This document shows positions 16,681 through 61,837 of a stretch of DNA of 64,000 bases, in pieces (position 1 is the first letter of the stretch; each line of letters opens with the position of its first letter). Source of the DNA: Mustelus asterias (taxonomy: Eukaryota). The notes under the pieces are model-generated. The model was not told the origin of the DNA and ran no database searches. It saw only the letters and a list, made by a program, of their open reading frames with translations. The translations under genes and the position numbers were made by a program. The DNA lies in NCBI RefSeq assembly GCF_964213995.1, contig NC_135830.1, positions 4,402,001 through 4,466,000 on the forward strand, written 5' to 3'.

Positions 16681-16853
16681 ACTTCCTCCTGTCGGAAGGG
16701 AGTTATTTTGATGACATGGATTACTCAAGCTTCATATCCCAGATGAAGCGAGGTACCTAAGTATGTTTTATTCTCCAAACAAGCGGTCAGATGACATCGA
16801 ACTCTGGCGGATAACTAATTTATCACTGATTTCCTTAAAAGAGGCCAACATCT

Positions 16854-16975
16854 AGCTCTTTCCTTTGTACTTTGATTTCTGTTCGGGCTGTTCCCCCTCC
16901 TTTTTGGGGAGCTGCCCCTTTTACTTTGTCCTGATTTAATCTGAGTTTGTTTATTTGGTTTGACCTGAAAAGAGG
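16854..16975 (+). mobile_element. Tx1 3'-end fragment in ZNF exon 1
   Basis: Near-identical to 20250-20365 and flanked by target copies CCAACATC. Confidence 0.85.
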
Positions 16976-17099
16976 CCAACATCCGTGAGTTGCAGAGCTT
17001 GCTCACTGGAGACGCCCGTTTTTGTTGAGAGCCATTGCTGTTTCTGCCAAAGTGCTCGAGTTCCAGCCAGAAGGAAGGAAGGCAGGAGGAGGAGGAGTC

Positions 17100-17228
17100 G
17101 CCTTTGCCTGCTTGCCGTCCGGCCTGTCTGCCTGCCGTCCGGCCTGTCTGCCTGCCGTCCGGCCTGTCTGCCTGCCGTCCGGCCTGCCTGCCTGCCTGCC
17201 GTCTGGCCTGCCTGCCTGCCGTCCGGCT
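17100..17228. repeat. 20-bp/(GCCT)n tandem repeat in Tx1 5' UTR
   Basis: GCCTGTCTGCCTGCCGTCCG units. Confidence 0.9.
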
Positions 17229-17844
17229 ACTGGAGGGTGCTCTCTCCCTGGAGGGAGAGAGGGAGAGGAGACACAGAGAGAGTTTCTCTTTGTTGTTTTT
17301 TTCCATCTACAGGAGGGAGGACAGCGCGACTTAAACATATCAACATCTAGGGACTGAGTGGTTGGGCTGGTGCCCTCATCATCAGAAGGTCGGTGCCTGA
17401 AAGGGAGGGAGGGGGAAGAATATTAAGACTGATTTCCATCTACGGGGGGGGGGGGGGGGGGGGTGTGAAGACACTCTGGACTTGAACTGTTGTGCCCAAG
17501 AGGGCTGAAGGAGCAAAGTCCCCCTACCCACTGCTGCTGCCCCCAACACCGGCACCGCCTCCCTTCTGACTGGGGCACCGGCTCTCCTCAGTGCCCTGAC
17601 CCTTGTCCTCCCTCCTGCTCCTCCAACCTCCTCTAGCTCCAGGGAGTGAGCACCTGAACCCCCACCCACCTACCCCACCCTCCCTTATTTCCCTCTCTGA
17701 CCCCGCCTTGCCACCTGGGCAGAGAGGCCCATTATCTATTCCTCCCTACTACCCGACACCTCTATCCCTTCCCATGGACACACATATACGCCCTGCCGTG
17801 CATCCGGGCAGCCTCAGAGTGGATGTAGCACTCGTCAAGCAACC

Positions 17845-18528
17845 ATGGCGACCTCGCCAGCGTCGCCGGTGGCAGGGCCTTCTCGGCCCACCTATGCGGG
17901 TGTGGTGGCGGCCGGAGCCCCCGCCGCTCCCAAGGCCCTGCCGCCATTCTCCCTAATCACGCGGCAGCTCGGGGTGAAGTGCTACGCCCACCCCGACATG
18001 TCTATCGAGGCCTGCGTCAAGGCAATGGCTGGGGTTGTCGGCCCCTCAGCCATTGTCGTGGCCTCCAAGATGTACGGCCGGGCCGTATTTTTCCTGAAGG
18101 CCGAGCGGGCGGTCCACCTCGCCCTGGAGAGGGGGCTCACGGTGGGCGGGACGTTCCTGGCGGTGGACCCTTTGGAGGCGACCGCTCATAAGATCATCAT
18201 CTCGAACGTCCCGCCCTTCCTACCGAGTGAGCTCCTCCTCCCCCACCTCCATCTACTGGGGGAGGTCAGGTCCGGGGTGCAGCCGATCCCGCTCGGCCTT
18301 AGGGACCCCTCCCTCCGACACGTTTACTCCTTCCGGCGCCAGGTATTTGTCCGCCTGGCCCGGGAGGAGGTCCTGGAGGGAGGTTTTGGCATCCCCTTCG
18401 AGGGAGTCACCTACCCGGTCTTCTGGTCCGCGGACGGTGTGCGGTGCCATGCCTGTAAGGAGGCGGGGCACTTTAAAAAGAACTGCCCCGTCTCCAAGGC
18501 CGCCGACCACCAACCCAATGGGGGGTAG
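17845..18528 (+). CDS. Tx1 ORF1 (gag-like, CCHC knuckle), truncated by the internal deletion
   Basis: ASKMYGRAVFFL, KIIISNVPPFL, HVYSFRRQVFV, CHACKEAGHFKKNC. Confidence 0.8.
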   Translation: MATSPASPVAGPSRPTYAGVVAAGAPAAPKALPPFSLITRQLGVKCYAHPDMSIEACVKAMAGVVGPSAIVVASKMYGRAVFFLKAERAVHLALERGLTVGGTFLAVDPLEATAHKIIISNVPPFLPSELLLPHLHLLGEVRSGVQPIPLGLRDPSLRHVYSFRRQVFVRLAREEVLEGGFGIPFEGVTYPVFWSADGVRCHACKEAGHFKKNCPVSKAADHQPNGG

Positions 18529-21500
18529 GCGACCCCAAGCCAGCACAACCGACACCTCCCGGGGACCCCCTACCGGAGGAGCTCAGGCCTTTCACCTGGA
18601 GCAGGACCGACCTCCTCTACTTGGGGGCCCATCTCTGCCCAGCCGAGGAATCCTGGCCGGTGAACTGGCGGGAGCTGGAGGCCAAAGTCTCCGCCCGCCT
18701 GAATCGCTGGACAGGACTGCTCCGAGTGCTGTCCTACGGGGCGCGAGCTCGCGTCATAAACCAGCTGGTCGCCTCCATGCTGTGGTACCGGCTGGTCCCT
18801 TTGACCCCTCCCCCTGGCTTTGTCACCGATATCCAGAGTACCCTCGTGCGGTTCTTCTGGGGCAATCGACTGCACTGGGTCCCTGCTGCGGTCCTGTATC
18901 TCCCGCTTGAGGAGGGCGGACAAGGTCTGGTGTGCCTTCGCACTCAGATAGCGACCTTCCGCCTCCAGGCCCTGCAGAGGTACCTTTACGTTGAGCCCCC
19001 TCCACGATGGTGTGCCATGGCGACGTATTTCTTCCGCCAGTGGCACGGCCTCAATTATGACGTGCAGCTCCTGCATATCGAACTGGGGCGTGCTTCGACC
19101 GCCCTGCAGGAGTTGCCCGTCTTTTACCAGGACCTCCTCACTGTCTGGAACAAGGTCGCCTCGTGACGCAGCTCTCCCCCGTCAGGAGTAGCTCCTCGTG
19201 CGAGAGCCGCTGCTGAGGAATCCGCTCCTCCAGCCGTATGACTTCAGGTGGCTGGCGGAGAGGGGGGCTGTGGACGCCGGGGTGACCAGAATCGGGGACG
19301 TGCTCGATGGCGGAGGAGCGGGCTGGATGAGTCCCCGCGTGCTGGCTGAGCGCGTGGGGACGACCGTCCGGCGCGCGGCCAAAGCCATCCTAGACCTTAG
19401 GACGGCCGTGCTCGGCCCCGAAACTGCACGCAAACCCAAGGCAGCGCAGGCGTGCGGTGGGACCCCGCCCGAGCATTCCCCTGCTCGGACAGAATTCCAC
19501 ATTGGCCCAAAACCTCAACCCCCCCACCCTGGGTGAGGTGCCCCACAGCCTGAGCCGCCTCGCGGAAATGTCCTCCGTGCCTTTTTCTACCGCGCGGAGG
19601 CGTCTCCTGTGCGGGCTGCTGCTGCACACCTTCCACTACCGCCTCCTCGCCTGTCGCCCGGATACACCTTGGCGGGCCTTGTTGCCGCCGGGCGGCGGAG
19701 GTCCCCGCTGGAGGTCCCTCTACGGAGGGATCTCCCCCAATTACGTCGGGGACCTGGGGTGGAGGGTGATGCATGCAGCAGTTCCGCACAAACGTAGGAT
19801 TCACTGGTTCACGGGCTCCGAAGACTGCCCTTTCTGTGGCCTTGTGGAGTCCGTGGACCATGTCTATGTTTTGTGTCTTAGGCTGCACTCCCTTTATGTT
19901 TTCCTAAAGAACCTTTTATTGATGTTTTGTTTGCACTTCAGTCCCACGCTCCTGATCTACAGACACCCGGTGCGGAGAGGTGAGGGTCGGGATGGCGACC
20001 TCCTCGTGAACCTGCTCCTGGGCCTGGCGAAACGCGCCATTTACCGGTCCAGGCAGCGGGCGATCGAGGGGGCCGTCCATCCTGACTGTCTGCCCCTCTA
20101 CCGCGGCTACGTTCGCGGCCAGGTGTCCCTGGAGAGGGAGCATGCGGTGTCCACGGGCGAGGTTGACGCCTTCCGCGCCCGTTGGGCACCGCAGGGGTTG
20201 GGGTGCGTTATCGACCCTGATAATCACATTATGATTTGATGTTCTTAAGTTTCCTTTGTACTTTGATTTTTGTTCGGGCTGTTCCCCCTCCTTTTGGGGA
20301 GCTGCCCCTTTTACTTTGTCCTGATTTAACTTGAGTTTGTTTATTTGGTTTGACCTAAAAAGAGGCCAACATTCGTGAGTAAAACACTTTCTTTTCTCCC
20401 CCTTTCCATTTCTTTTCTCATTCTGGGGGAAATTGGGGACTTGCAGCAACTGAAGGGAAAGGAAGTGAATCCAGGGAGGCTGCAGACTCTGGAAAGGTTG
20501 GCCCAGGTCTCTCTCTCTCTCTTAAAGACATTGACATCCTTTGCTCCCTCAGCTTGACACATTTATTTGTCTGGCTGAAAAGGATGGTCTCATTCCTAAT
20601 CTTCACAATTAAAGGGGTGGTTTCCATCAGGAGATGGCTGACATTTAAAGGGACACTAATATAGGACAGAGATATGATTAAGTATATTTATAATTATATC
20701 TCGCTGTGTAACATAGTACTGTTGCTATGTTATATATTTCCAGTCACCTCTTCACACACAGTTGTTAGTCTTGGATTTCTCTTCCACAGGGATCAGTGGA
20801 GGCTGAGGGTCATTGAATATATTCCAGGGTCAGTTGGACTGATTTTTGATTCATAAAGGAGTCCAACGTTATGGGGAACAGGTCGGAGAATGCAGATAAA
20901 GTTAAGGTGAGGGGGGATTTCCTCACGCAAGGATGTGGTAAGGTTTTGGAATTCTGCATCCCAGAGGACTGTGGAGCCTCAGCCATGTAGAATTTTCAAG
21001 CTGGAGATTGATAAGTTTTGAGATATTGAAGACATTGAACGACGTGGGGGATAGCGTGGGAAATAGCGCTGAGGTAGATCGGCCAATTCTCAATGAATGG
21101 TTGAGGCAGTTCGATGGGCTGAATGGCCGACTGCAGCTCCTACTTGTTATGGTCCCTGTGTCCAGGACAGGAAGCAGTGAGCATAGATCTGTCAATCAGC
21201 CTCAATCAGCACCTTCAGGAGAATTGGGAGGGTGAATATTAGATACAGCAGAGTGAGAATGGAGGGAGAGTGAGTGGGATGGAGATTCACAGCTTTTGGG
21301 GAATGAGAGGAAAGAATGTTCCATAGAAACTAGAATTGTCTGTTCTGAATTTTTATCCTGTACTGACACTGATGACTTATGTAAATTTCTTTTACAGGAT
21401 ATTGAAAAAAGAATCACAGGCAGGAATCTCAAATGTCACATCTCGATCTGACAGAGTCATATTCCTTGGGACCTGAATATCATTGGCCTTTGAATCTAGA

Positions 21501-21744
21501 AGTAGTATTGGCCGATCTGTTGTTTTGAAAAGATTTCAAACATCAGTGTGAGTGGAAAAGCACCAACACACTGCCACACTCGAGTGAGTGTGTTCCAATG
21601 CACTGACTAAAGAGCTTTAACCAGTTACACAGCCTGAATAAATATCACATCATTCACAGCGGGGAGAGACTGTACTCGTGTTGTGTGTGTGGACGAGGCT
21701 TCAACTGATTGTCCACCCAAGAGAGAGCCAAGGACACCTGTGAC

Positions 21745-22815
21745 ATGGAGAAACCATGGAAATGTGGGGACTGTGGGAAGAGATATAAAGTTCCATCTCG
21801 GCTGGAAATTCATCGACGCAGTCACACTGGGGAGAGACCGTTCATCTGCTCTCAGTGTGGGAGGGGATTCACTTGGTTATCCACCCTGCAAAGACACCAG
21901 CGAGTTCACACTGGGGAGAGGCCATTCACCTGCTCTCTGTGTGGGAAGGGATTCACTCAGTCATCCGGTCTGCGGGCACACCAGCGAGTTCACACTGGAG
22001 AGAGGCCATTCACCTGCACCCTGTGTGGGAAGGGTTTCATTCAGTCATCCCACCTACTGAATCACAAAGCCACTCACACCAATGAGAGACGCTTTAAATG
22101 CTCTGATTGTGGGAGTGGCTTCAAAACCTCTGGTGAACTGGTGTTCCACCAGCGCATTCACACTGAGGAGAGACCGTTCAGTTGCTCTCACTGCACAAAG
22201 AGGTTTAGAAGGTCATCCCACCTGCAGACACACCAGCGAGTTCACACCGGGGAGAGGCCGTTCACCTGCACCGTATGTGGGAAGGGGTTCACACAGTTAT
22301 CCAGCCTGTGGGCACACCAGCAAGTTCACACTGGGGAGAGGCCATTTACCTGCTCTGTGTGTGGGAAGGGATTCACTCTGTCATCGAACCTGCTGAAACA
22401 CAAAGTCACTCACACCCAGGAGAGACCCTTTAAATGCCCTGACTGTGGGAGCGGATTCAAACGTGCTTCGGATCTGAGGGACCACGAGCGAGTTCACACT
22501 GGGGAGAGACCGTTCAGCTGCTCTGTGTGTGGGAAGAGATTCACTCAGTTATCCCACCTATTGAATCATAAAATCACTCACAGCAATGAGAGACCCTTTG
22601 AATGTTCTGACTGTGGGGGTGGCTTCAAAAGCTCTCAGGATCTGATGTCCCACCAGCGCACTCACACTGAGGAGAGACCATTCAGCTGCTCTCTTTGTGC
22701 AAAGAGGTTTAAATGGTCATCCGCACTGCGGAGACACCAGCGAGTTCACACTGGGGAGAGACATTCCCCTGCTCTGTGTGTGGAAAGGGATTCACTCAGT
22801 TATCCAACCTGCTGA
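21745..22815 (+). CDS. Tandem C2H2 zinc-finger protein D (12 fingers, 13th frameshifted; 356 aa)
   Basis: [10 protein letters not shown] start, acceptor TTTTACAG at ~21397, conserved family 3' UTR. Confidence 0.85.
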
Positions 22816-23094
22816 AACACCAGCGGGTTCACAAGTGATGACAGGGGTTGGATGCTGCTGTTCTTGCTGCTGTTAATCACATCACCATGTTCGTTCTGAC
22901 AGTTGGTGAAGTGGGAGGGTCGGAGGGTTTCTTTCTGCTGGACTGGGCGTCTCACGGCTTTGCTTCCAGTGGGCTGATGCTCTTTGAGCCTGGGAGAGCA
23001 CATTTCCACTGAAATGACCCACAAAAACTGCTGAAAGACAATTACTTTATCCTGGATAGAAAATAGTGATTTTCACCACTGCAGGTAAACCTAA

Positions 23095-26499: not shown

Positions 26500-29283
26500 C
26501 AGGGGTCTCCAAACGTTTCAGTACGGGAGCCACATCGTATATTTTACACATTTTCGGGGGCCAAAGAAAAAAAAAAGTTTCATAAATGAATGAATAAAAT
26601 TTAAATGAATGAATAAGTTTTATTTGGATCATCTTTGTAATCAGCATGATATGATTCAGAACAAAAGAGAAATGTGACAATTACAAAGAAACAATGTCGT
26701 GCTTAACACTGAGAAATGATATATAATGAGTAAAGATGTCAAACATTAGCAAACGCTCTGACAAAATAATCAATGTCTTAATTGCAGATGAGAAAAGCAG
26801 GCTATTCGTTTTTTAATTAATTTTATTTACTGAAATTTTACAAATGTTTACTTGAAATGAGAATTTGCCCCATTTTGTGACACACAATAAGAAAAATAAA
26901 CATGCCCCAAGAAAGAACTTCAGTAAAACAAAGCAAAGAAATTCAAAATAAACTTGAACCATTAATAAAGGACGAACAAAAATAAATTCAGTCTGCACCT
27001 TTCAACACAATTCTGGCAACTGGAGTTTTCAATCGTAACCAATAAATCATGAAGTTTTGCACAAGATTAATGGGAATGATGGAACTGCTTTTTTAATTTC
27101 AAAATATTGCTGAACTGAGGTTTCAAGCTTGAGGAGCCAATTATTAGAATGGACTTCAAATGCTCATCAGATAAATTTGCTCGATATTTGGACTTGACAT
27201 CCTTCATTTTTGAAAATGTTTGTTCACACAGATATGTTGTACCAAAAACTGATACAAATCCACAAGCAAATCGCTTCAAATTTGTAAACTGCTCAGGCTG
27301 CAAAGATTTATAAAATTGGATCAGATTTCCTTCTTTATACTTGTCTTTCAGCATGTCATCTGATTGGAGATCAATAATTTCCATTTGAAACTGACTTGGG
27401 AGTGTTTCAACATTGCAGCCAAATGGAGTTTGAAACAGCTTTATTTCATCTGTGTTTCCATCAAGATCAGAAAATCGTTCCTGAAATTGTTTTTGCAAGT
27501 CCTTAATAATTTCTGTTGCAAATAAAGAAGGAAATTCTGCTTCACTTTCTTCATGAAATTTTTCACAACATAGAAAATGAACCAAGTTATGAACTTACAG
27601 TTGTCCTTGAAATAGCATCAGTTTTGCCCTGAATGCCTTGACATGCGCGAATAGATCACAAATCAAATTTGTTTCACCTTGCAACTTCAGATTCAATTGA
27701 TTCATATGGCCTGTCACGTCTGCAAAATATGCCAATTTCCAAAGCCAGTCAGTGTTTGATAAAAGTGGTTCGGGTCGATTCTTCTGTTGGAAAGGAATCA
27801 ATTTCCTCTCTGAGCTGAAAGAACCGTGATAGAACCTTTCCACAACTAAGCCATCGAACTGCTGTATAATAAGGCAAGTCACCGAACTCAGAATCAGTTT
27901 CTTTCAGAAAATCACGAAACTGGCGATGATTAAGCCTGTGAGATTGAATGAAATTCACTGTTGAAACAACAGGTTTCAGAACGCAAGACATATCCACATA
28001 TTTTCCGCACGATGCTCATTGATGGATAATGCAATGCAGAATCATGGGCTTTGAGAATCCACCAACCTCACAAGCTTTTGTGATTTGTCCAACCAAACCT
28101 TTCTTCACCCCAGACATGTTCTTTCCTCCATCAATTGTCACGCATTGCAGTTTATTCCACTCCAGGTTACATTCTAACACAGTTTTTTGCAATTCTTTGA
28201 AGATGTCTTCTCCAGTTACTGTGCTGTGCATGCTATGCACTGATGCTAATTCTTGTGTCACATTAAATTCACTGTCGACGCCACGGATGAATACTAGGAG
28301 TTGTGATGTGTCACACACATCAGTTGATTCATCAAGTGCGAGAGAATACAACTGAAAATTTCTCGCTTTGTCTGTAATTTGATGATATATATTGCTTCCT
28401 ATATCCTCAATTCTATGAGCAACAGTATTTGGCGCAAGCCTGGTGATTTTGAACAGATTTGCTTTTTCTGGGCATAACTCTTCTACTGCTTCCCTTATAC
28501 ACTCTTTGATGAGATCTCCATCGGTGAATGGCTTTCCTCTTTTAGCCAACATGTAAGCTAGTTTGTAACTGGCCCTGGTTAAAGCTTCATCTTCTGTGTA
28601 AAAAAAGCTTGTTGGGAAAGCAACCTGCGTTGCATTGATTCAAATTTTTCTGAACGCTGTGTTCCTGTGAATTGGGAATAACTTGTTTCATGTTTGGTCT
28701 CATAGTGCCGACGTACATTGTACTCCTTCAAAACTGCAACAGTTTCGTTGCATATGACACACAAGGCTTTATCACCTGCTTGTACAAAGAAGTACTTTAC
28801 ACCCCATTCTTCATTAAACAGGCAGCACTCACTGTCCACTTTTCTTTTATTTTTTCCTTCCATAACTGAATTGGTCTGAATTGCCGCCATCATTGTCATT
28901 GTTCTCGCTCATTTCAGACGGAGCTTATGGATTGGATAAAGCAGCTGTCACTCAGTCAATGCAGAGCGGCAATTGGGTAACAGATGTCTCAATTGCTGAT
29001 TCGTTTAATGAACTGTCAGTCACAGGACGGCAGCTCTGATTGGACAATAGGCCGGTAAAGAGGGCGGGGATTCCCATGGGTCCATCAGACACCGCGCGGA
29101 GTGGAAGCAAATGTCCGTCCTGTGGCTTCCGTCCCCGCGTCCGGATCCTGAGTCAGCGGCGGTGTTCCGGACGCGGGAGTGTTTTCGGCAGCGGGAATCA
29201 CGTCCCGCCCCACTGGCTGCGGGCCAGATGTTAGCCCGCTGCGGGCCGGATGTGGCCCGTGGGCCGTAGTTTGGAGACCCCTG
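26500..29283 (-). mobile_element. hAT DNA transposon (Buster/Charlie-SPIN group), full length, frameshifted transposase
   Basis: Perfect 15-bp TIRs CAGGGGTCTCCAAAC. Transposase 28899-27067 in several frames: BED-type CVIC...RRHYETKH, SLALDESTD, TIDGGKNM, HCIIHQ, VRWLSCG, FGTTYLCEQTFS. Confidence 0.95.
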
Positions 29284-29823: not shown

Positions 29824-30750
29824 TCACTCGTGAACTTGTTGGTGTCTCAGCAGCTGGGATGAAACTCTGAATCCCTTCCCACACTGAGAGCAGGTGAATG
29901 GTCTCTCCCGAGTATGAACTTGCTGGTGTGTCTGCAGATTGGATGAGTCAGTGAATCCCTTCCCACACTGAGAACAGGTGAACGCCCTCTCTCCAGTGTG
30001 AACTCGCTGGTGCGTCTGCAGGCTGGATAATTGAGTGAATCGCTTCTCACACTGAGAACAGGTGAATGGTTTCTCCCCAGTGTGAACTCGCTGGTGCGTC
30101 TGCAGGCTGGATAATTGAGTGAATCGCTTCTCACACTGAGAACAGGTGAATGGCCTCTCCCCAGTGTGAACTCGCTGGTGTATCCGCAGGTCGGATAACC
30201 GAGTGAATCCCTTCCCACACTGAGAGCAGGTGAACGGCCTCTCCCCAGTGTGAACTCGCTGGTGTGTCCGCAGGTGGGATGACTGAGTGAATCCCTCCCC
30301 ACACTGAGAGCAGGTGAATGGTCTCTCCCCAGTGTGAACTCGCTGGTGTGTCTGCAGGTTGGATAACTGACTGAATCCCTTCCCACACTGAGAGCAGGTG
30401 AACGGTCTCTCCCCAGTGTGAACTCGCTGGTGTCTCTGCAGGTGGGATAACTGAGTGAATCCCTTCCCACACTGAGAGCAGGCGAATGGTCTCTCCCCAG
30501 TGTGAACTCGCTGGTGTATCTGCAGGCTGAATAACTGGCTGAATCCCTCCTCACACTGAGAGCAGGTGAACGGTCTCTCCCCAGTGTGAACTCGCTGGTG
30601 TGTCCGCAGGGTGGATAACTGAGTGAACCCTTTCCCACAATCAGAGCAGGTGAACGGCCTCTCCCCGGTGTGGCTGCGGCGATGAGTTTCCAGCAGAGAT
30701 GGGTAATTGAATCCCTTCCCACAGTCCCCACATTTCCACGGTTTCTCCAT
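29824..30750 (-). CDS. Tandem C2H2 zinc-finger protein E (11 fingers, 308 aa)
   Basis: Intact ORF from [10 protein letters not shown] to HQQVHE*. Confidence 0.9.
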
Positions 30751-31650
30751 GGTTCGGGTGTCCTTGTGACTGTCCAGGTTAAACAATCAGTTCAATCTCA
30801 CACAGAACACGGGGACAGTCTCTCCCACTGTGAATGCTGCGATGTATTTTCAGGCTGTGTAACTGGTTAAAGCTCTTTCCACACTCAGTGCACTGGAACA
30901 CTCTCACTCGGGTGTGTGTGTGTCTCGGCATTTGTCCAGTCACATTTATGCGAAAAAAAAGTCTGAAGCAGACAGAACAGAAAAATATTTCTCCTCTTAG
31001 ATTGAAAGGCCGATGGTATTCAGGTCCAGATGAACTGAATGACTGTCAGAACTTGACATTTGTTCAAGATTTCTGTCTGTAAATCCTCACCTTCTGATAC
31101 CCTGTGAAAGGTGTTTACAAAATGCATCAGTGTCAGCACAGATTAGTAAATCAGAACAGCCAATTCTAGTTTCTATGGAACATTCTTTCCTCTCTCATTC
31201 CCCAAAAGCTATAAATCTCCACCCAACACACTCTCCCTCCATTCTCACTCTGCTGTATCTAATATTTGCCCGCTCAATTCTCCTGAAGGTGCTGATTGAA
31301 GCTGATGGACAGATTCATGCTCAATGCTTCCTGTCCTGGACACAAAGAGCTGAAATTCTCCGTGCAGGCGGCCAGACAGATCTATGTCTCTATTACGGGA
31401 CTAAAAATGTGTTTAATGGATAGAATTGTTTCAGTTGGCTAAGATACAGGGGGCTGTGATTGATCATGATCTTGGACTGCTTGTGAGGGTAGTCAAGTAG
31501 AGATGATCAATAACTTGGAAATTAAATTGGAGGTGCTGCAGAATGGGGTCCACTCGACACTGACAGTGAGTCGGCATTGACCCGAGTGGTTCAATGGACT
31601 CCTTCTGTGCTGTAATGACTCTATTACTGGAAATATATCACGTAGCTACA

Positions 31651-32797: not shown

Positions 32798-33199
32798 CTA
32801 CTGTATGATATTACAGATTAGAAATAATAATAATAATAAATGTACATTATTGCAGAACCGTACATATCTAATCTTGCCTAATGACAATACTGAACATATC
32901 TCTAACCTATATAAATTTACAGTCTCCTTAAATGTCAGCCATCTCCTGGGGAAACCAGCCCTTTAATTGTGAGCATTAGGAAAGAGACCAATGTGTCAAG
33001 CTGAGGGAGCAAAGGATGTCAATGTCTTTCAGAGAGAGAGACCTGGGCCAACCTTTCCACAATCTGCACCCTCCCTGGATTCACTTCCTTTCCCTTCAGT
33101 TGCTGCAAGTCCCCAATTTCCCCCAGAATGAGAAAAGAAATGGAAGGGTGGAGAAAAGAAAGTGTTTTACTCACAGATGTTGGAACAGGAGGAAGTTTC

Positions 33200-33765
33200 T
33201 GCCTCTCTGATGCCCCATCTTCATTCACACAAAAACCCACACTCTGATTGGCTGGAAGACCTGAGGCCTTCCGGTCCTCCAATTCTTTTCAATGGCCAGA
33301 GCTGGTGAGGGACAGTGAATCAAACATGCGCATGTGCGAGTTTTGGGGGAATGCGCATGTGCGGGTGTGGTTCGGGGCCCGGGACGAAGCCGGCGCACTG
33401 ACCATTGTCTGTCCGGGTCTTCCAGCCTTTCCCATTGGACAACAGCTCAGCGCGGTTGGAGGGCAAAGTCCCGCCCACCCCCACGTGGGGCTCCGCCCCT
33501 CATTGTCTGTCTGCGGGGGATTGGCCAATGGGAACTCTGGAGGACCGGAAGGACTCTGCTCCGCTCGCTGCCTCTCACAGGCTCTGACCAATGGGCATTC
33601 TGGAGGACCGGAAGGACTCTGGTCCCCCAGCCAATCAAAGCTTCTCCATTGTCTGAATGCGGAAGTTGCACAATGAGCTTGTTCAGCTGCTCATTCCGGC
33701 CCAGCAAAGCTGCTGCTGCTCTTTCTCTGAATGAAGAATGAGCTTCAGACACAGACTCAAACTTC
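33200..33765. promoter_or_regulatory. Bidirectional promoter between ZNF E (-) and ZNF F (+)
   Basis: CCAAT arrays facing both ways, TGCGCATG motifs, GC boxes. Exon-1 donors CATCT|GTGAGT at ~33175 (-) and ~33786 (+). Confidence 0.75.
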
Positions 33766-33874
33766 CTCCTGTCTCTCCAACATCTGTGAGTAAAACATTT
33801 TCTTTTCTCCCCCCCTTCCATTCCTTTTTTCATTCTGGGGGGAAACTGTTGACTTGCAGCAACTGATCACGAGA

Positions 33875-36590: not shown

Positions 36591-36663
36591 AAGAAAGGAA
36601 AGAATGTTCCATGAAACACTAGAATTGTCTGTTTTGAATTTCTACCCTGTGCTGACAGTGATT

Positions 36664-37329
36664 CCCCGCTGGAGGTCCCTCTACGGAGGGATCTCCCCCA
36701 ATTCCGTCGGGGACCTGGGGTGGAGGGTGATGCATGCAGCAGTTCCGCACAACCGTAGGATTCACTGGTTCACGGGCTCCGAAGACTGCCCTTTCTGCGG
36801 CCTTGTGGAGTCCGTGGACCATGTCTATGTTGTGTGTCTTAGGCTGCACTCCCTTTATGTTTTCCTGAAGAACCTTTTATTGATGTTCTGTTTGCACTTC
36901 AGTCCCACGCTCCTGATCTACGGACACCCGGTGCGGAGAGGGGAGGGTCGGGATGGCGACCTCCTCGTGAACCTGCTCCTGGGCCTGGCGAAACGCGCCA
37001 TTTACCGGTCCAGGCTGCGGGCGATCGAGGGGGCCGTCCATCCTGACTGTCTTCCCCTCTACCGCGGCTACGTTCGCGGCGGTGTCCCTGGAGAGGGAGC
37101 ATGCGGTGTCCACGGGCGAGGTTGACGCTTTCCGCGCCCGCTGGGCACCGCAGGGGTTGGGGTGCATTATTGACCCCAATAATCACATTTTAATTTGATG
37201 TTTTTAAGTTTCCTTTGTACTTTGATTTCTGTTCGGGCTATTCCCCCTCCTTTTTGGGGAGCTGCCCCTTTTACTTTGTCCTGATTTAATCTGAGTTTGT
37301 TTACTTGGTTTGGTTTGACCTAAAAAGAA
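36664..37329 (+). mobile_element. Tx1 5'-truncated copy just upstream of the ZNF F splice acceptor
   Basis: Near-identical to 19703-20363; 10-bp TSD GACAGTGATT (36654-36663 / 37330-37339). Confidence 0.92.
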
Positions 37330-37733
37330 GACAGTGATTACTTTTGCAAACTCCTTTCACAGGATATTAGAAGCTGAGGACTTACAGACAGAAATCTCAA
37401 ACTAAACAAGATTCGACAGAGTCACTCAATTCATCGGGATCTGTATATCATCGGCCTTTGAATCTTGAAGGAGAAATTCTTCTCTGTTCTGGCTGTTTTA
37501 GAAGGCTTTAAACGTCAGAGTGACTGGAAAAGCACCAAGACACACACACATGACACACACACACCCAAGGGAGAGTGTTCCAGTGCATTGACTGTGGGAA
37601 AGGACTTTAACCAGTTACACAGCCTGAAAAAGAATTGCATCATTCACAGCAGAGAGAGACTGTATCCGTGTTCTGTGTGTGGACGAGGCTTCAACTGATC
37701 ATCCAACCTAGAGATTCACAACAAAACCACATC

Positions 37734-38771
37734 ATGGAGGTAGGCTGGAAATGTGGGGACTGTGGGAAGGGATTTAGGTATCCATCTCAGCTGGAAACTC
37801 ATCGACGCAGTCACACTGGGTCAAGGCCATTCACCTGCTCTGTGTGTGGACAGAGACTCACTGATTCATCGAGCCTGCGAAGACACCAGCGAGTTCACAC
37901 CAGGGAGAGGCCGTTCACCTGCACTGAGTGTGGGAAGGAATTCACTCAGTTATCCAATCTGCAGAAACACCAACGAGTTCACACTGGGGAGAGACCGTTC
38001 ACCTGCTCTGTGTGTGGGAAGGGATTCACTCAGTCATCCCACCTGCTGACACACCAGCGAGTTCACTCAAGTGAGAAACCGTTCACCTGCTCTCAGTGTG
38101 GGAAGAGTTTCGCTCGGTCATCCAATCTACTGACACACCAGCGAGTTCACACCGGGGAGAGGCCATTCACCTGCTCTGTGTGTGGGAAGGGATTCACAAA
38201 TTCATCCAACCTGCTGACGCACCAGCGACTTCACACTGAGGAGAGACCATTCACCTGCACCACGTGTGGGAAGGGATTCAAACGTGCATCCACCCTGCAG
38301 GATCACCAGCTAGTTCACAGCAGGGAGAGGCCGTTTACCTGCTCTGATTGTGGGAAGGGATTCACTCAGGTATCCAATCTGCGGAGACACCAGCGAGTTC
38401 ACACTGGGGAGAGGCTGTTTATCTGCTCTGATTGTGGGAATGGATTCAGAGATTCATCCACTCTGCTGAACCACCAGCGAGTTCACACCGGGGAGAGGCC
38501 GTTCAGCTGCTCTGTGTGTGGGAAGGAATTTGCTCAGTTATCCAATCTGCAGACACACCAGCGCATTCACACTGAGGAGAGACAATACAGCTGCTCTCAC
38601 TGCACAAAGAGGTTCAGGTGGTCATCCACCCTGCTGAGACACCAGCGAATTCACACCGGGGAGAGGCCGTTCATCTGCACTGTGTGTGACAAGGGATTCA
38701 GACATTCAAATACCCTGAAGAGACACCAGCGAGTTCACACCGAGGAGAGGCCATCCACCGGTGCTGTGTGA
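37734..38771 (+). CDS. Tandem C2H2 zinc-finger protein F (12 fingers, 345 aa)
   Basis: ATG at the conserved position ([10 protein letters not shown]). The 13th finger is degenerate and contains the stop. Confidence 0.85.
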
Positions 38772-46996: not shown

Positions 46997-48402
46997 TCAT
47001 TGTAACATCATGTTGGCCTGTTTGGGTGATCACCAAAGGTCAAAAGGGGAACTGAAAGGGTTAATAATCACATAAGCTGCTAAGTTCTCAAAGACAGAAG
47101 CTCTGAGAAACCAGATGCCTCAGAACTAGGCGGCCTCCAGATAATAGTCAAGGACCACAAAACTTTGAATTGCAAGGGAGGCTCCAATCATGCAGTGTGC
47201 GCACAAGAATTCAATTGAACCATTTGCAGCTGCAGCTTATGAGTGCCCATTAGAACAAGGGACAATGAGCAAGGGAGTTTGATACACCACTAGTCAGACA
47301 TCTATCTATCGTACTCGTGCCTGAAAGTTCATAGATAAGTACAGAAAATACATGTTCGATGACATAATTAAGTAGATGCTATAGGGTCTGTTCATTCCTT
47401 AGAATAGACGTAGACCGCACTGGTCCAAAGTTGAACTCCATTTATTGAGCATCATTTAAAAATTAACACGTTACAGAAAGCAAAAAAATGTTTACTTGAG
47501 AGAGAGAGGGACCAGCAGAAGCTCGTCCTGATACAGATTCGATCCAAACCTTGCACAGGATCAGCTTCTGTCGGGGTCCATTCATTCCTTAGAATAGACA
47601 TGGGTAGCACTTGGTACGAATTTAAGATGATTTTCTTTCTTGAATAAAACTTAAAATTAATACGACAGAAGTGGAGAGAGAGAGAAATGTTGGAGACTGG
47701 CTTCACAGCCAGGCCCTGTACAGACCTGAACTCAAACCTCACACTGGGCTGAACAAACTAGACAGATAACTTTTACTGCAATATATGAATTCTTCCCCGT
47801 GTTATTGAAATTGCTGGTACAAACTGTGTCCCTAAATTCCATAAACAATTGGCAGCTGTGGCCATGAAAAATGTTGTTTATGAAAAGCATTGTTTCTGCT
47901 AACATTGTATTTTCAAAGAATGCAGTCAATTTCTAAACTCGTCCCAGAATTCCCAGCTGAGTTTTAAAATGTGACCAAGTTCGCTTTAAAGCTCAGCCTA
48001 AGTAGTTACATAGACAGGAATATCTTAAAATTAAGTCTTTTAACTGAAGCAAACCATACAAAGGATCCCAGAAATGTGCACAAATGATAATTGGACAGCT
48101 ATACTCACACATGATGTAATCCTAACTATTAGTTGAGTGGAGATGGATAATCTCTGAACAAATATACAGATTTGATTGGTATTTGCTAATTCCTTGTGAC
48201 TGGATCTGAAAGTATAACTGTCTGTGTAATGTATTATTCAGGCCCCTCTGGTGGGCCACCAGCTGGACTACCAGATTATTAGCTGTAGCTTTGAAAAACT
48301 CCAAAACTCTTTGTCTGGGCACTCAAAGGGGACAGCCCTGAAAATAGTTCAGTCCTGGATGTGATTAACAGCAACAATGACAGCAGAATCCAACCCCTGT
48401 CA

Positions 48403-49486
48403 TCACTTGTGAACTCACTGGGGTGTCTGCGGGTGGGATGCATCACAAAATCCCTTCCCACACTGAGAGCAGGAGAATGGCCTCTCCTCAGTGTGGACTT
48501 GAAGGTGTCTCTGCAGGTAGGTTGAATCATTGAATCTCTTCTCACACTGAGAGCAGGTGAACGGCCTCTCCCCAGTGTGGACTTGAAGGTGTCTCTGCAG
48601 GTAGGTTGAATCATTGAATCCCTTCTCACACTGAGAGCAGGTGAATGGCCTCTCCCCAGTGTGAATGCGCTGGTGGGACATCAACTCCAAAGAAGTTTTG
48701 AAGCCACTCCCACAGTCAGAGCATTTAAAGCGTCTCTCATTGCTGTGAGTGATTTTGTCTCAGCAGATTAGATAACTCAGTGAATCCCTTCCCACACTCA
48801 GAGCAGCAGAATGGTCTCTCCTCAGAATGAATATGCTGGTGAACCAACATTGACAGAGTTTTTGAAATCCCTCCCACAGTCAGCATTGAAAGGGCCTCTC
48901 ACTAGTGTGAGTGACATTATGTCTCCGAAGGCTGGTTAACCGAGTGAATCCCTTCCCACACTCAGAGCAGGTGAATGGCTTCTCCCCAATGTGAACTCGC
49001 TGGTGCTTCTGCAGGCTGGAGAACTGACTGAATCCCATTTCACACTGAGGGCGGCACGGTAGCACAGTGGTTAGCACTGCTGCTTCACAGCTCCAGGGTC
49101 CCGGGTTCGATTCCCGGCTCGGGTCACTGTCTGTGTGGAGTTTGCACATTCTCCTCGTGTCTGCGTGGGTTTCCTCCGGGTGCTCTGGTTTCCTCCCACA
49201 GTCCAAAGATGTGCGGGTTAGGTTGATTGGCCAGGTTAAAAATTGCCCCTTAGAGTCCTGGGATGCGTAGGTTAGAGGGATTAGCAGGTAAATATATGGG
49301 GGTAGGGCCTGGGTGGGATTGTGGTCGGTGCAGACTCGATGGGCCGAATGGCCTCCTTCTGCACTGTAGGGTTTCTATGATTTCTATGAATGGCTTCTCC
49401 CCAGTGTGACTGCGTCGATGAACTTCAAGCGCAGATGGGAACTGGAATCCTTTCCTACAGTCCCCACATTTCCACAGTTTTTTCAT
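48403..49486 (-). pseudogene. C2H2 zinc-finger pseudogene G, disrupted by a SINE and frameshifts
   Basis: Starts MKKLWKCGDC, HE1 insertion in finger 2, indels at 48700-48900, premature stop in the last finger. Confidence 0.88.
49049..49387 (+). mobile_element. HE1-type V-SINE inside ZNF G (another partial copy at 49742-49946, minus strand)
   Basis: Full-length copy. A few target bases are missing and there is no clear TSD. Confidence 0.92.
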
Positions 49487-50224
49487 GTTGTGGTGTCCTT
49501 CTGAATGAGTGATGATGAGTTGAAAATTTGTCCAGGCGCAGAATGCAAAAGTTATCACCCCACTGTGAATGGTCTGATGTTTTTTCAGGCTGTGTAACTA
49601 GTTAAAGCTTTTTCCACAGTCAGCGCATTGGAACACTCTCACTACTGTGTGGGTATCTCAGTGCTTTTCCAGTCACACTGATGTTAAAAGCCTTCTGAAG
49701 CAGACAGAACAGATACAAGATTTATCATAGAAGACTAATATCATAGAAACCCTACAGTGCAGAAGGAGGCCATTCGGCCCATCGAGTCTGCACCGACCAC
49801 AATCCCACCCAGGCCCTACCCCCACATATTTTACCCGCTAATCCCTCTAACCTACGCATCCCAGGACTCTAAGGGGCAATTTTTAACCTGGCCAATCAAC
49901 CTAACCCGCACATCTTTGGACTGTGGGAGGAAACCGGAGCACCCGGTTAAACTTCCTCCTGTCCTGGACACAGAGAGCTGAAAATCTTCAAGCTGACAGC
50001 CACGTTAAAGCTTTACATTTGAACACAAATGAGCAGACTGATGATGTGTGTAATACATTGTATTACCTGGTGAGAGATACATGAAGAATGTAAGGAGGAT
50101 TTATATTTCAGCAGCGAGTGACCTGGAAGTTAAAAATACAACTCCAGAATGAAGAAAGAAATGGAATGGTGGAGGAAAGAAATGTTTTACTCACAGATAT
50201 TGAAGACGGGAGGAAGTTTGAGTC

Positions 50225-50715: not shown

Positions 50716-50720
50716 ACTTC

Positions 50721-50755
50721 CTGAGTTTGTTTATTTGGTTTGACCTAATAAGAGG
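50721..50755 (+). mobile_element. 35-bp Tx1 3' terminus in ZNF H exon 1
   Basis: CTGAGTTTGTTTATTTGGTTTGACCTAATAAGAGG followed by CCAACATCTGTGAGT. Confidence 0.85.
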
Positions 50756-53063: not shown

Positions 53064-53990
53064 ATGGAGAAACCATGGAAATGTGCAGACTGTGGGAAGA
53101 GATACAGAGCTCCATCAGAGCTGGAAGCTCATCGGCGCAGTCACACTGGGGAGAGACCATTCACCTGCTCTCAGTGTGGGGAGGGATTCACTCAGTCATC
53201 CGGCCTGCAGTCACACCAGCGAGTTCACACTGGGGAGAGGCCGTTCACGTGTTCTCAGTGTGGGGAGGGATTCAGTCATTTATCCAGCCTGCGCATACAC
53301 CAGCGAGTTCACACTGGGGAGAAGCCATTCAGCTGCTCTCAGTGTGGGAAGGGATTCGCTTGTTCATCCACCCTGCGGGCACACCAGCGAGTTCACACTG
53401 GGGAGAGGCCATTCACCTGCTCTCAATGTGGGAAGGGATTCACTCAATCATCCCACCTGCAGACACACAAGCGAGTTCACACTGGGGAGAGGCCATTCAC
53501 CTGCTCTCAATGTGGGGAGGGATTCACTCGGTCATCCCACCTGCAGAGACACCAGCGACTTCACACTGGGGAGAGGCCATTCATTTGCTCTCCGTGTGGG
53601 AAGGGATTCTGTGATTCATCGAGCCTGCTGAGACACCAGCGTGTTCACACTGGGGAGAGACCATTCACCTGCTCTCAGTGTGGGAAGGGATTCACTCGGT
53701 TATCCCACCTGCAGATACACCAGCGAGTTCACACTGGGGAGAGGCCGTTCACCTGCTCTCAGTGTGGGAAGGGATTCACTCGGTTATCCCACCTACAGAT
53801 ACACCAGCGAGTTCACACTGGGGAGAGACCATTCACCTGCTCTCAATGTGAGAAGGAATTCATTCGGTTATCCCACCTGTGGAGACACCAGCGAGTTCAC
53901 ACAGGGGAGAGACCGTTCTCCTGCTCTGTGTGTGGGAAGGGATTCACTCAGTCATCCCACCTGCAGAGACACCAACAAGTTCACGAGTGA
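53064..53990 (+). CDS. Tandem C2H2 zinc-finger protein H (11 fingers, 308 aa)
   Basis: Intact ORF with ACCATGG start context; close paralogue of ZNF E. Confidence 0.9.
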
Positions 53991-55350: not shown

Positions 55351-55717
55351 ATTATTGCAGGACTGGCTGGTGTTCAGCGACTGAGATACCTGGAATCTGT
55401 AAAAATAGGGTCTGACTAATCAACAAACGGGGTAGGAAGCTGACTAAGAAGTTAAGAAGCGTTCTCAGGCATGTTTAAATTATTTTATCATAAATTTGTG
55501 CTCAGAACTGTGAGGGACTTGTGACCTGATAGTCGGTGAAGTGACGGTATACTCCAAGTAGCACTGGACTGAAAAGCAGATCTCTGAGAGTAGATTCTAA
55601 TGGTTATAGTCTTACCCAAGCACGGCCAGTGAAAAATCAAAGCTCGAGTGGGGACTGGACAGGTCTCTTCCTGCCATTTGGAAACTAAGAACAAGAAACT
55701 TATCGATTAAACTGATT

Positions 55718-55898
55718 AGAGAATAGAGCCAATCTTTCGAGTCTGGATGACACTTCAGAAGAGCTCTTATAAAGGGTCATCCAGACTCGAAACATTGACT
55801 CTATTCTCTCTCCACAGATACTGTCAGACCTGCTGAGATTTTCCAGCATTTTCCGTTTTGTTTCAGATTCCAGCATCCGCAATATTTCACTTTTATGA
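55718..55898 (+). mobile_element. Penelope-type mini-element with 5' fold-back centred on GAGCTC (related degenerate copies ~56970-57105 + and ~60840-60975 -)
   Basis: Similar to 44861-45000; the hammerhead region is duplicated in inverted orientation and its core is degenerate. Confidence 0.7.
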
Positions 55899-58454: not shown

Positions 58455-59070
58455 CTTTGTGGAACACCTCCGCTCAGTCCACAAGCATGACCCTGACCTT
58501 CCGCTTGCCATTAGAATTCACCACCTTGCTCTCACGCTCACATTTCTGTCCTCGGCCTGCTGCAATGTTCCGGAGAAACCCAACACAAGCTGGACAAACA
58601 GCCCCGCATCTTCCGATGAGGCACTTTACAGCCTTCTGGACTCAACATTGAGTTCAACAACTTCACACCCTGAACTCTCTCTTCATTTTGATTTGTCTTT
58701 TTTGCCGAGTGCCAGTCTGCATCTTGTTTTCATGTTTTTTTGCTGCCAGACAGAGCTGTCCTTTATTCTGCCATTAACACTTACTCTGGACCAATTAATT
58801 TGTTTCTTTACCACAACCATTACCTCTCCCTTTGCCTTTTGTTCCAGGACATTTTTGTCATTTAATCTCACCCATCCTCTAACCAATCCCTGACTTTCCC
58901 TTTTGTTCTACCTGCCCCTCCCCCCTTTCTCAGCAGCATCAAACCCATCACATTTCTCCCTCTCTTTAGTTCTGAAGTAGAGTTACATTGGACGTGAAAC
59001 ATTAACTCTGTTTCTCTCTCCACAGATGCTGTCAGACCTGCTGTGTTTTTCCAGTTCTTTCTGTATTTAT
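58455..59070 (+). mobile_element. Penelope 3' fragment (GIY-YIG tail + pseudo-LTR)
   Basis: FVEHLRSV...HISVLGLLQC...IFR*GTLQPSGLNIEFNNF, then CTGAAGT-AGAGTT...GAAACATT (mutated hammerhead). Confidence 0.8.
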
Positions 59071-59348
59071 TTTAGATCTCCCTGTGGTGGAGGGAAAAAC
59101 ACTATTTACTGCCCAGGATAAAATAAATGTCCTTCAACAGCTTTTGTGGATAATTTCAGTGGAAATGTGCTCTCCCAGGCTCAAAGAGCATCAGCCCATT
59201 GGAAGCAAAGTCATGAGACCGGCCAGTCCAGCAGAAAGAAACCCTCCGACTCTCGCCATTGACCAACTGTGAGAATGAACAAAATGCAGTCCTGGATGTA
59301 ATTGAGAGCAGAAACAATAACAGCAGAATTCAACCCCTGGAATCACTC
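59070..59348 (-). pseudogene. Orphan ZNF 3' UTR (coding region absent)
   Basis: Matches the family 3' UTR up to the GAG TGA stop, then homology ends. Confidence 0.85.
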
Positions 59349-59399
59349 TTAATTAACCTATGGAGGCAAGAACATCTTGCCTCCATAGGTTAATTAAGA
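59347..59399. repeat. Perfect 25-bp inverted repeat with 3-nt spacer
   Basis: TCTTAATTAACCTATGGAGGCAAGA-aca-TCTTGCCTCCATAGGTTAATTAAGA. Confidence 0.97.
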
Positions 59400-59989
59400 A
59401 TGTTCTCTCCAAGGAGAGAGGGTGGGGAGGGTGGTGGGTGGAAAGGGACGGGGAAGGTGGGGGTGGAAGTTGAGGGGAGGGTGGGGTGGAATGGGAAGCA
59501 GTGGGAGGTTGGTGGATGGAGGGGTGGTCCGAGGGGGAGGGGTGTCGGGAGAAGGGGGACCGGTAAAGAGAGGGGGGAGATGGTGAGAGGGATGGAGGGG
59601 GGAAGGTAGGAGGAGATGGGGAAGGGAGACGGGGTGAGGTGGACGGGGAAGTGAGAAGACGGAGAGGAAGTTGGGGGAAGGGCGTGTTGGAAGGGGCATT
59701 TGTCAATTTAAGGATTAATTCCCAGGAGTTGGGAGGCTAAATCGTTCCACCAGAAGTTAATAAACTGTTGTGCTAAGGGGACATCCCAACCCAATCCAAT
59801 GACTCCCCACATGTACTTAGTGTCAAGGTGGGGTCACTGCGCACCCCCTTCCCCCCCCCCCCCCTCCCCCCACCTCCCCCAACTCCCACTTGCCATCCCA
59901 GTCTAAGAAGTTTGGAGACAGGGCTCCAGATGCGTAATGGCGGCCGCAGCTCCCTCACTCCCCCGCGCTGGGAAACCGCTCTATCTGCC

Positions 59990-60175
59990 GCGCGGGAGGT
60001 GACCAGGGACTGCGCATGAACAACGGAGAGGGGAAGCGGCGCATATGTGGGGTCGAGCCCAAAGCCTGACCTTCAGGCTGAGGTGTTGACCAATGCGAAG
60101 AGTTGGAGGACCGGAAGGACTGTGGTCCTCCAGCCAATCAGAGCGCGGGCTTTGTGTGAATGAAGATTGAAACCT
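59990..60175 (+). promoter_or_regulatory. Promoter half for ZNF I
   Basis: Paralogous to 16500-16680: GCGCATG motifs and paired CCAAT with the intervening palindrome. Confidence 0.7.
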
Positions 60176-60196
60176 CTTCCTGTCTCCAACATCTGT

Positions 60197-60242
60197 CCTG
60201 ACTTAATCTGAGTTTGTTTATTTGGTTTGACCTAAAAAGAGG
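60197..60242 (+). mobile_element. 46-bp Tx1 3' terminus in ZNF I exon 1
   Basis: Flanked by 10-bp TSD CAACATCTGT (60187-60196 / 60243-60252). Confidence 0.9.
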
Positions 60243-61837
60243 CAACATCTGTGAGTAAAAGACTTTATTTTCTCCTTCTTTCCATTTCTTTTCTCATTCT
60301 GGGGGGAAATTGGGGACTTGCAGCTACTGAAGGAAAATAAGTGAATCCAGGGAGGGTGCAGACTCTGGAAAGGTTGGCCCAGGTCTCTCTCTCTATTTTA
60401 AATGCATTGACATCCTTTGCTCCCTCAGCTTGACACATTGATTTGTCTGGCTAAAATGATGATCTCTTTCCGAATGTTATTAAATTAAAGGACTGGTTTC
60501 TCCAGGAGATGGCTGACATTTAAGGGGACAGTAAATTAATATAGGACAGAGATATATCTAGTGTTATTATATGATACAGATTAGATATATTATTTGTAGT
60601 TCTGTAATGAAATACATTTATGATTATTTCTAGTTTAGTAATATAATACTGTCGCTATGCTGTATGTTTCCAGTCAGAGTCATTACAGCACAGAAGGAGT
60701 TCATTCAGTAACTCGAGTCCATGCCGACTCTCGTTTCAGCTTCATCTCACCTTGGGCTGAATTTGAGATGCCGACCTGGGAGAAAAGGTTTTCCCTCCTG
60801 TCCCCTCTAAACTGTCCACCAGTCACTTTAAATCTATGTGAAAAGCAAAATACTGCAGATGCTGCAATCTGAACAAAAAAACAGTGAAAATGCTGGAAAA
60901 TCTCAGCAGGTCTGACAGCATCTGTGGCGAGAGAATAGAACCAACGTTAAAGTCTGGTTGACCCTTCATCAGACTCTTGAGCTCTGGCATTTTCTGTGTT
61001 AAACCTACGCTCCCTGGTAATCGCACCTTCTGCTATGGGAAACATGTCAGTTCTGTTTACCCTTTCTCGACCCTTATAATTTTAAAGTACTGGTTACATT
61101 CAGTCAGTCCCAGTCCCCCTCCATATCCCCTTTGCAGGTAAATTTGTCAGTTTATTTCCTTCTGGTGCCATCTACCTCCACTTCCACATGCTGCTGAAAT
61201 CAAGTTCTTCCGCACATCCCCATATATCCAGTAACACAGTACTGTGTATTACATCGGTTTTTAGTCCAATAAACATATATAAAATCAGTGAGCATGGATC
61301 TATTGGTCAGCAAGAATTGGTCCCTTCAGGAGAATTGGGAGGGTGAATATTAGATACAGCAGAGTGAGAATGGAGGGAGTGTGTGTGGGATGGAGATTTA
61401 TGATTTTTGGGGAATGAGAGAGGAAAGAATGTTCCATCAAAACTAGAATTGTCTGTTTTGAATTTCTATCCAGTGCTGACACTGATGTATTTTGTAAACT
61501 TCTTTTACAGGATATCAGAAGGCGAGGATTGACAGATGAAAGACAACATCTGACAGAGTCTCTTAATTCATTGGGACCTGAATATCATCGGCCTTTGAAT
61601 CTAGAAGGAGAAATGTTTCTCTGTTCTGTCTGCTTCAAAAGACTTTAATCGTTGGTGTGACTTGAAAAGCACTGAGACACACACACACCCGAGTGAGAGT
61701 GTTCCAGTGCACTGAGTGTGGAAAGAGCTTTAACCTGTTACACAGCCTGAAAATACATCACAGCATTCACAGCGGGAGAGATTGTACCCGTGTTCTGTGT
61801 GTGGATGAGGCTTCAACTGATCGTCAAACCTGGAGAT

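Follow-up and report, generated by a model that had tools for sequence, protein, structure and literature searches.

The stretch of the Mustelus asterias genome analysed here, 64,000 nucleotides (nt) of NC_135830.1 referred to below as the window (C71:4402001-4466000 of a 3.68-Gb genome, in which contigs are labelled C1, C2 and so on and fetched loci L plus a number), contains seven tandem C2H2 zinc-finger (ZNF) genes or remnants, mostly arranged as divergent pairs, and several pieces of a Tx1-type retrotransposon, here called family A, which in three of the genes lie at one base of the predicted first exon. The downstream motif of this exon matched seven times in the window, against 0.28 matches expected by chance, and all seven exon-1 ends announced in a preliminary description of this DNA were found, each oriented in sense towards a coding exon with tandem C2H2 motifs, and ends and coding exons pair one to one. 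Four ends are empty at the nick, as had been stated: 16197-16227 (-), a GCAA-type paralogue with the degenerate donor GGGAGG, belonging to the ZNF gene at 14589-15590; 33169-33198 (-), belonging to the gene at 29824-30786, with an acceptor at 31101; 33759-33791 (+), belonging to the gene at 37611-38771; and 50189-50219 (-), belonging to a broken gene at about 48279-49374. ZNF open reading frames (ORFs) are open in two of the three occupied genes and three of the four empty genes of the window, and among judgeable occupied loci the ZNF ORF was open for at least 100 codons in 35 of 45, a proportion that has no matched control set.

The first occupied end, upstream of an open ORF of 356 amino acids with tandem C2H2 motifs (21745-22815, +), carries three stacked insertions, all on the + strand. 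The upstream half of the target (16679-16694) is followed by 138 nt of foreign sequence joined to a 12-nt Tx1 3' tip (16695-16844, with the tip at 16833-16844), a third insertion beyond the two named previously; then come a 9-nt target duplication (16845-16853), five extra nt with a 117-nt Tx1 3' piece (16854-16975, the piece itself at 16859-16975 and 95.7% identical to the long copy), a 15-nt target duplication with one mismatch that supplies a GTGAGT donor in front of the long copy (16976-16990), the 5'-complete, internally deleted 3.4-kb Tx1 copy (16991-20365), and the downstream target half, consisting of the final 9 nt of the predicted exon 1 and the GTGAGT donor (20366-20380). The long copy comprises a 5' untranslated region (UTR), ORF1 from 17845 (stop at 18528, with a weak CCHC knuckle), a C-terminal remnant of ORF2 up to 20239 and a 3' UTR, and has a deletion of about 3.7 kb near 18518-18563 relative to the intact copy L308. 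At the second occupied end, a 34-nt 3' tip identified by BLAST (50722-50755, +; ZNF gene 53064-53990, acceptor 52713) is accompanied by loss of a few target bases and has no target site duplication (TSD), and at the third a 10-11 nt TSD, a 46-nt tip (60197-60242) and the downstream target half occupy 60186-60256 (+; acceptor 61511). The copies previously given as 35 bp, 46 bp, about 120 bp and 3.4 kb are therefore present, at 34, 46 and 117 nt for the short ones. The three short window insertions each have same-junction duplicates elsewhere, in groups of four, three and six distinct sequences, the group of four merging two events; the short insertions are mutually distinct, yet have also been copied along with their genes. 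A further 668-nt 3' copy (36663-37330, +), absent from the preliminary description, lies at an off-target ACA site 32 nt upstream of an exon-2 acceptor. The 138-nt foreign piece (16695-16832) had no Rfam match at the gathering score, leaving a C/D small nucleolar RNA, suggested by eye from box C/D-like words, without Rfam support; related sequence occurs in L089, L091, L118, L134 and L149.

On its predicted proteins, family A is a Tx1-clade non-LTR (long terminal repeat) retrotransposon, a long interspersed nuclear element (LINE) related to Tx1L of Xenopus. Intact ORF2, encoding 1,304 amino acids in L308 and also intact in L309 and L310, has an APE endonuclease domain (PF03372, residues 13-234 in L308) and a reverse transcriptase (RT) domain (PF00078, 519-769), and is 49% identical to Tx1L (YTX2_XENLA) over 99% of its length; its closest relatives, in partial alignments, are from stingray (70% identity) and horn shark (64%). 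In an RT tree of 19 proteins picked from 121 hits, for which outgroup rooting was unreliable, the query and the stingray, sturgeon, turtle and Xenopus Tx1L proteins formed one clade with a support of 100/100. ORF1 is a separate frame, in which the CCHC knuckle (PF00098) scores 19.7 bits against a cut-off of 20.8. The hallmarks of the Tx1 clade found thus include an ORF2 with APE and RT domains, RT grouping with Tx1 elements, and 5' truncation with TSDs.

The intron-side (donor) motif of exon 1 has 687 exact matches in the genome, the first on C12 and none on C1-C11. Among 60 donor sites chosen regardless of Tx1 (the first 63 listed minus three in the window), 28 carried the 3' end of a retroelement, always in sense and at one common base (hereafter site 1), which precedes by 9 nt the first splice donor predicted for the tandem ZNF genes; 26 of these ends belong to family A and two to a second retroposon, family B, with 25 family A and both family B ends called by script and L389, which has one tip substitution, added by eye. 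Occupancy was 5/14 on C12, 19/35 on C23, 0/1 on C70 and 4/10 on C71, and ten of the 26 family A inserts are tips shorter than 22 nt, which are invisible to the genome count given below. In 1.09 Mb of cluster DNA containing 97,138 VCAV words, non-anchor 3' ends fell nine times at site 1, once at a second site described below and seven times elsewhere, four of the seven being internal tandem repeats; this comparison is a rough local control, since the set includes the window and donor-anchored loci. We are confident that the hot spot itself is real.

A few ancestral insertions spread by duplication or gene conversion of ZNF genes and trimmed later could imitate such a pattern without any real preference. 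Large duplicate groups lend this idea some weight, with 12 of the best 40 BLAST hits having one common 5' break, most of the transfer RNA (tRNA) heads described below being of one type and all three short window copies being duplicated, and unplaced contigs may include redundant haplotypes. However, primary junctions that differ from one another and have a TSD or small-RNA head of their own number in the dozens; in the window locus, L083, L086 and L363, inserts are stacked at one site with TSDs between them; three subfamilies, a second family and a second site are involved; and occupancy is unclustered on a 66-row tree built from the intron flanks, where the occupied label needs 23 changes compared with a shuffled mean of 22.3 and a single origin appears in 0% of bootstrap trees. 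We therefore regard spread from a few ancestral copies as highly improbable and largely refuted already, and the earlier proposal of independent insertions, rather than one inherited and later trimmed, agrees with 28 filled sites of 60, the many different junctions and the lack of a single origin.

The site is nevertheless not the usual destination of the element. The exact 22-nt Tx1 3' end occurs 1,351 times in the genome, including 34 times each on C1 and C2, and is followed exactly by the exon-1 site in 98 cases (7%), none of them on C1-C11, although such exact patterns overlook tiny and mutated copies. These 98 ends form about 36 breakpoint groups, which we count as about 30-37 events after collapsing duplicates; the 58 breakpoint groups found in a junction grouping were not accepted as the number of events, since secondary breaks arise through later deletions and insertions. 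Among the matches listed on C1-C4 (100 flanks, read by eye), 88 flanks start with (C/G/A)CA, six with TCT and six otherwise, and none is site 1, and one of 30 Tx1 copies fetched from C1 had a ZNF-like flank. Under the rule given in PMC4494074, a target-specific family has more than 20% of its flanks in one repeat type; the older subfamilies, with CC, GC or AC flanks, fall below this at 7%, and lower once duplicates are collapsed, and so are not target-specific. The preliminary description had proposed ZNF exon 1 as a sequence-specific target and named heterogeneous genome-wide 3' flanks as the observation to look for against it; the flanks of most copies are heterogeneous, and specificity in the usual sense is not borne out. 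The exon-1 site is a strong, base-precise hot spot and not an exclusive target.

Pre-insertion sequences rebuilt from TSDs at 16 off-target sites had T at -11 (11/16), C at -7 (14/16), T at -5 (12/16) and CCA after the nick, with no conservation past +4, and the ZNF site fits this motif. A motif of this type occurs about every 630 bp, or at about 5.8 million sites genome-wide, and set against 687 ZNF donor sites predicts that fewer than one of the 1,351 copies would lie there, compared with the 98 observed; a further factor of at least 100 is thus needed, even with duplicates collapsed. This bears on the possibility that the endonuclease alone places the element by means of a longer recognition site, with long off-site copies removed by selection and the 5' heads being passengers. 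The upstream bases that off-target sites have in common with the ZNF site speak for it, as does the sequence-specific endonuclease of the nearest characterised relative, Tx1L (PMC1950540), but 5.8 million motif sites are far too many for an occupancy of 47%, and a longer recognition site is hard to reconcile with the variable off-target bases past +4.

Long copies are distributed differently from short ones. An 18-mer of ORF1 matched 194 times in the genome, with only two matches on C1-C11, and 24 of the 31 matches on C1-C25 were at ZNF clusters or exon-1-like sites (22 in the C12 and C23 clusters and two more at exon-1-like sites). Exceptions are L309 and L310, intact young copies on C21 that lie inside a (CCAAT)n satellite; L312 on C23, an intact or near-complete young copy, is also within (CCAAT)n satellite. 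With copies shorter than 22 nt left out, a length of 950 nt or more was reached by 12 of 16 copies at ZNF sites and by three of 29 off target (p=2e-5; L052 excluded from the off-target set). The motif at the start of the 5' UTR was preceded by target-like sequence in all 22 cases, with GTGAGT within 40 nt in 20, although 14 of the 22 form one duplicated group; the 5'-complete copies lie at ZNF exon-1 sites and open with sequence copied from the end of exon 1 and its donor.

Many of the 5'-complete copies also carry a tRNA-Val(GAC) head. One head form had 52 matches, none on C1-C11, and all 30 that were fetched continue into Tx1, 26 of them being one duplicated type. For example, the independent inserts L181-L184, L214, L215, L270 and L284 each have the tRNA trailer, then the exon-1 end and donor copy, and then the UTR; because the same head recurs at different sites, it must travel along with the element. 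L029 had raised the idea that tRNA-Val genes are the real target, which was rejected since all 30 fetched matches are element heads followed by Tx1. Other small RNAs are joined to short Tx1 tips, namely U2 (L062) and tRNA-Arg (L400 and L402). In L062 (C1), positions 1863-2546 hold two tandem U2 small nuclear RNA 5' halves, each joined to a Tx1 3' piece as in SINEU-type chimeras, and L312, L287 and L288 have a piece joined 5' that we take to be 5S rRNA-like. Head-to-tail arrays of full-length Tx1 with a spacing of about 7.1-7.4 kb were observed at C75:16.07-16.09 Mb (L311) and on C91, C90 and C112, and the two junctions examined in the L311 array carry different heads. In L104, a ZNF-site Tx1 copy is interrupted, about 5.9-3.9 kb before its 3' end, by gag/pol frames like those of an LTR retrotransposon.

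The flank class follows the subfamily, requiring 16 changes on a tree of 92 3' regions compared with 31.5 after shuffling, and in the C1-C4 flank listing all 20 T-variant ends were followed by CC. The TC class consists largely of a single clade, the youngest, which is diverged by less than about 1% and includes the copies with intact ORF2. Among the matches listed (the first 100 of 250, read by eye), 36 TC ends ran into a part of exon 1 that lies about 50 nt before site 1, a count that includes duplicates, ten ends of one tandem array and some cases in which the adjoining sequence is the head of the next copy. The 5' head of the TC subfamily is a diverged copy of exactly this second-site stretch and is common to different contigs. 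Placement by the endonuclease alone would gain from the small number of endonuclease residues that differ between young and old subfamilies, but that the new site of the young subfamily matches its own captured head counts against it, and we consider such an explanation unlikely. As a separate observation, the start of exon 2 in L003-L006 and L013 has 10 nt in common with the end of the T-variant tip, which may be chance.

Family B is a retroposon of about 1.9 kb that has no long ORF and makes TSDs. It has no nucleotide or protein similarity to family A, which rules out that it is a piece of it. Among the matches listed (the first 100 of 211, read by eye, with tandem arrays and duplicates included), 32 family B ends were at site 1. 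Because it shares site 1, makes TSDs and often adjoins family A pieces, family B is probably mobilised by the family A machinery. A second recurrent flank of family B (L252-L262 on C16 and C19, L234 and L245) consists of a palindrome resembling a CCAAT box and, after it, a TATA-like box; C19 holds a 28-copy tandem array with this flank, a similar flank is present at L307, and another repeated promoter may thus be a target.

That an unrelated retroposon uses the same base could also mean that a weak nick motif is combined with guidance by chromatin or a host factor: exon 1 would adjoin a bidirectional promoter active in the germ line as well as the splice donor, and open chromatin, an R-loop or a tether would draw the ribonucleoprotein to it. 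Neither site is more than about 60 nt from the donor, a single short exon holds both, and U2, tRNA-Arg and other small-RNA pieces are often joined 5', as might be expected under such guidance. However, precision to the base with sense orientation in 28 of 28 cases is atypical of tethering, which yields a window near the target (PMC3706591), and family B, often adjoining family A pieces, probably shares its machinery. Guidance of this kind seems to us rather improbable.

The exon carrying the site is itself a prediction. It has a consensus GTGAGT donor, the acceptor CAG|G is kept in 74 of 81 exon-2 sequences, and an exon-2 signal was present within 2.4 kb of 50 of 80 occupied loci in sense and of 14 of 80 in antisense. 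An ATG lies 51 nt upstream of the donor in 14 of 32 empty sites, but its frame failed to reach the ZNF start codon in all 81 exon-2 sequences (assuming no unseen middle exon), so exon 1 appears non-coding and its role as a coding exon was discarded. The proposal that a protein-coding multigene family is the target therefore stands for the 5' exon of such a family and not for coding sequence. A genome search for spliced ZNF retrocopies by the exon-1/exon-2 junction gave a single match, a chance one without ZNF context, and a scan of metagenomes (other organisms) for the exon-1 target likewise gave one unrelated chance match. Among the joints displayed for four further sequence runs, which were contigs of unrecorded kind and thus uninformative about splicing, none connected exon 1 with exon 2. 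No support was found for exon 1 being a dispersed transposon of the Tx1D kind, as none of the 687 matches is on C1-C11 and the window sites pair with ZNF exons. In the window, the exon-1 motif has an additional match, in its upstream half without the donor half, next to SINE (short interspersed nuclear element)-like sequence at 49949-49964; a tandem repeat of about 24 nt lies in the 5' part of a ZNF exon 2 before the start codon (15410-15787, -); and 27067-28639 (-) contains two ORF remnants that presumably resemble hAT-type transposase.

TSDs were present in 29 of 64 resolvable off-target copies, with a mode of 14-15 nt (15/29), and 12 more ran past the edge of the locus. Since the nick is 9 nt before the exon boundary, a TSD of 14-15 nt copies the GTGAG(T) donor ahead of the insert, and such TSDs were found at window positions 16976-16990, in L071, L077, L099, L280 and L350, and in family B. 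The rebuilt donor is predicted to make many inserts intronic, while tiny inserts would merely lengthen the 5' UTR.

We lean towards a mechanism in which a weak endonuclease preference is amplified by a homology loop, with source copies in exon 1, target-bearing RNA, and return to paralogous exons. The endonuclease would recognise the weak motif common to off-target and ZNF sites, and source copies would be co-transcribed from ZNF promoters. By analogy with R2, read-through target bases at the 3' end may help priming, and a 5' target copy may allow full-length complementary DNA (cDNA) to join only at homologous sites; joining of this kind would leave off-target copies short and ZNF-site copies long, closing a self-reinforcing loop. 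The tRNA-Val head would have been gained by template switching and then inherited, and 14-15 nt of target duplication would restore a donor in front of the insert. Some insertions are then multiplied as genes and segments duplicate. A stronger version, which we regard as possible but doubtful, is that a vertebrate LINE lineage lives inside presumed anti-transposon ZNF genes, borrowing their promoters, becoming an intron by donor duplication and retargeting itself by exon-1 capture, with RNA-DNA homology and not the endonuclease placing full-length copies; read in this way, the move of the site by about 50 nt in the youngest subfamily would be a sign of retargeting by captured exon-1 pieces.

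Several observations weigh against the homology loop. About 93% of exact 3' ends sit elsewhere in the genome, and the scarcity of long copies away from ZNF sites could reflect selection. The shift of site could stem from a protein change, given the few endonuclease residues that differ between the young and old subfamilies. The strict motif fits only 18 of 32 empty ZNF sites, the off-target logo comes from 16 sites with TSD lengths inflated by microhomology, and the intron-flank tree is weak, with 37 of 63 branches open and strong branches forcing only seven changes. Many ZNF-site junctions have a TSD of 8-10 nt or none, in which case the donor is not rebuilt and stays downstream unless the head brings one, and one large duplicated head group is without its internal donor copy. 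Finally, exon 1, its co-transcription with Tx1 and its splicing are predictions only.

Family A resembles several known systems. It shares with Xenopus Tx1L the RT clade, the APE and RT domains and a fixed site in a repeated target (PMC1950540, PMC4494074), but Tx1L, described as stringent, targets the DNA transposon Tx1D, whereas family A uses the exon of a host gene and has most copies off target. Crocodilian Tx1-Mar/SINEU likewise combines Tx1 machinery having a target preference with a non-autonomous partner on the same target, and shows repeated 5' addition of small RNAs, 5' extensions from the target of the master copy and tandems separated by TSDs (PMC4494074). However, its target is a Mariner transposon and its heads are U1/U2 (PMC4494074), whereas in family A the target is the first exon of a gene, the autonomous element itself bears the tRNA-Val head and the TSD extends across a splice donor. 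In Trypanosoma, ingi/RIME are a LINE and a non-autonomous partner inserted singly or stacked at one site of the protein-coding RHS multigene family (PMC7563717), a precedent of which the preliminary description was unaware; they belong to another LINE clade and kingdom and hit coding sequence, making pseudogenes (PMC7563717), whereas family A inserts into an exon predicted to be non-coding and can leave the ORF open. R2 in 28S rDNA, which is transcribed together with its target and whose RNA ends bear target-derived bases that raise accuracy (PMC6795142), provided the model borrowed for family A, but has a restriction-like endonuclease, an RNA-gene target and strict specificity (PMC6795142), and the role of flanking RNA in family A is proposed by analogy only. 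Endogenous retroviruses also accumulate in mammalian KRAB-ZNF clusters and are amplified by segmental duplication (PMC13709654), although this is regional enrichment and not repeated insertion at one base. Reported Tx1 targets are small-RNA genes, microsatellites, satellites and other transposons, and the literature searched contained no Tx1 element or other vertebrate LINE that targets a protein-coding multigene family; its scope did not extend to the original survey of Tx1 targets, to Repbase or Dfam, or to supplements (including the target tables of PMC4494074, which may list more), so that a prior catalogue entry is possible.

The intact young copies (L308-L310), together with a natural shift of site, make the choice between endonuclease and RNA homology directly testable. 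The range of safe havens is widened by a hot spot that is precise to the base and lies in the first exon of hundreds of protein-coding genes, and the rebuilding of the splice donor by the target duplication suggests how an insertion inside a gene could be harmless. ZNF families have been proposed as transposon repressors across animals (PMC10547256, in the available text of which a term search returned no mention of shark or Tx1), and LINE source copies under ZNF promoters would therefore tie their own expression to that of their presumed repressors.

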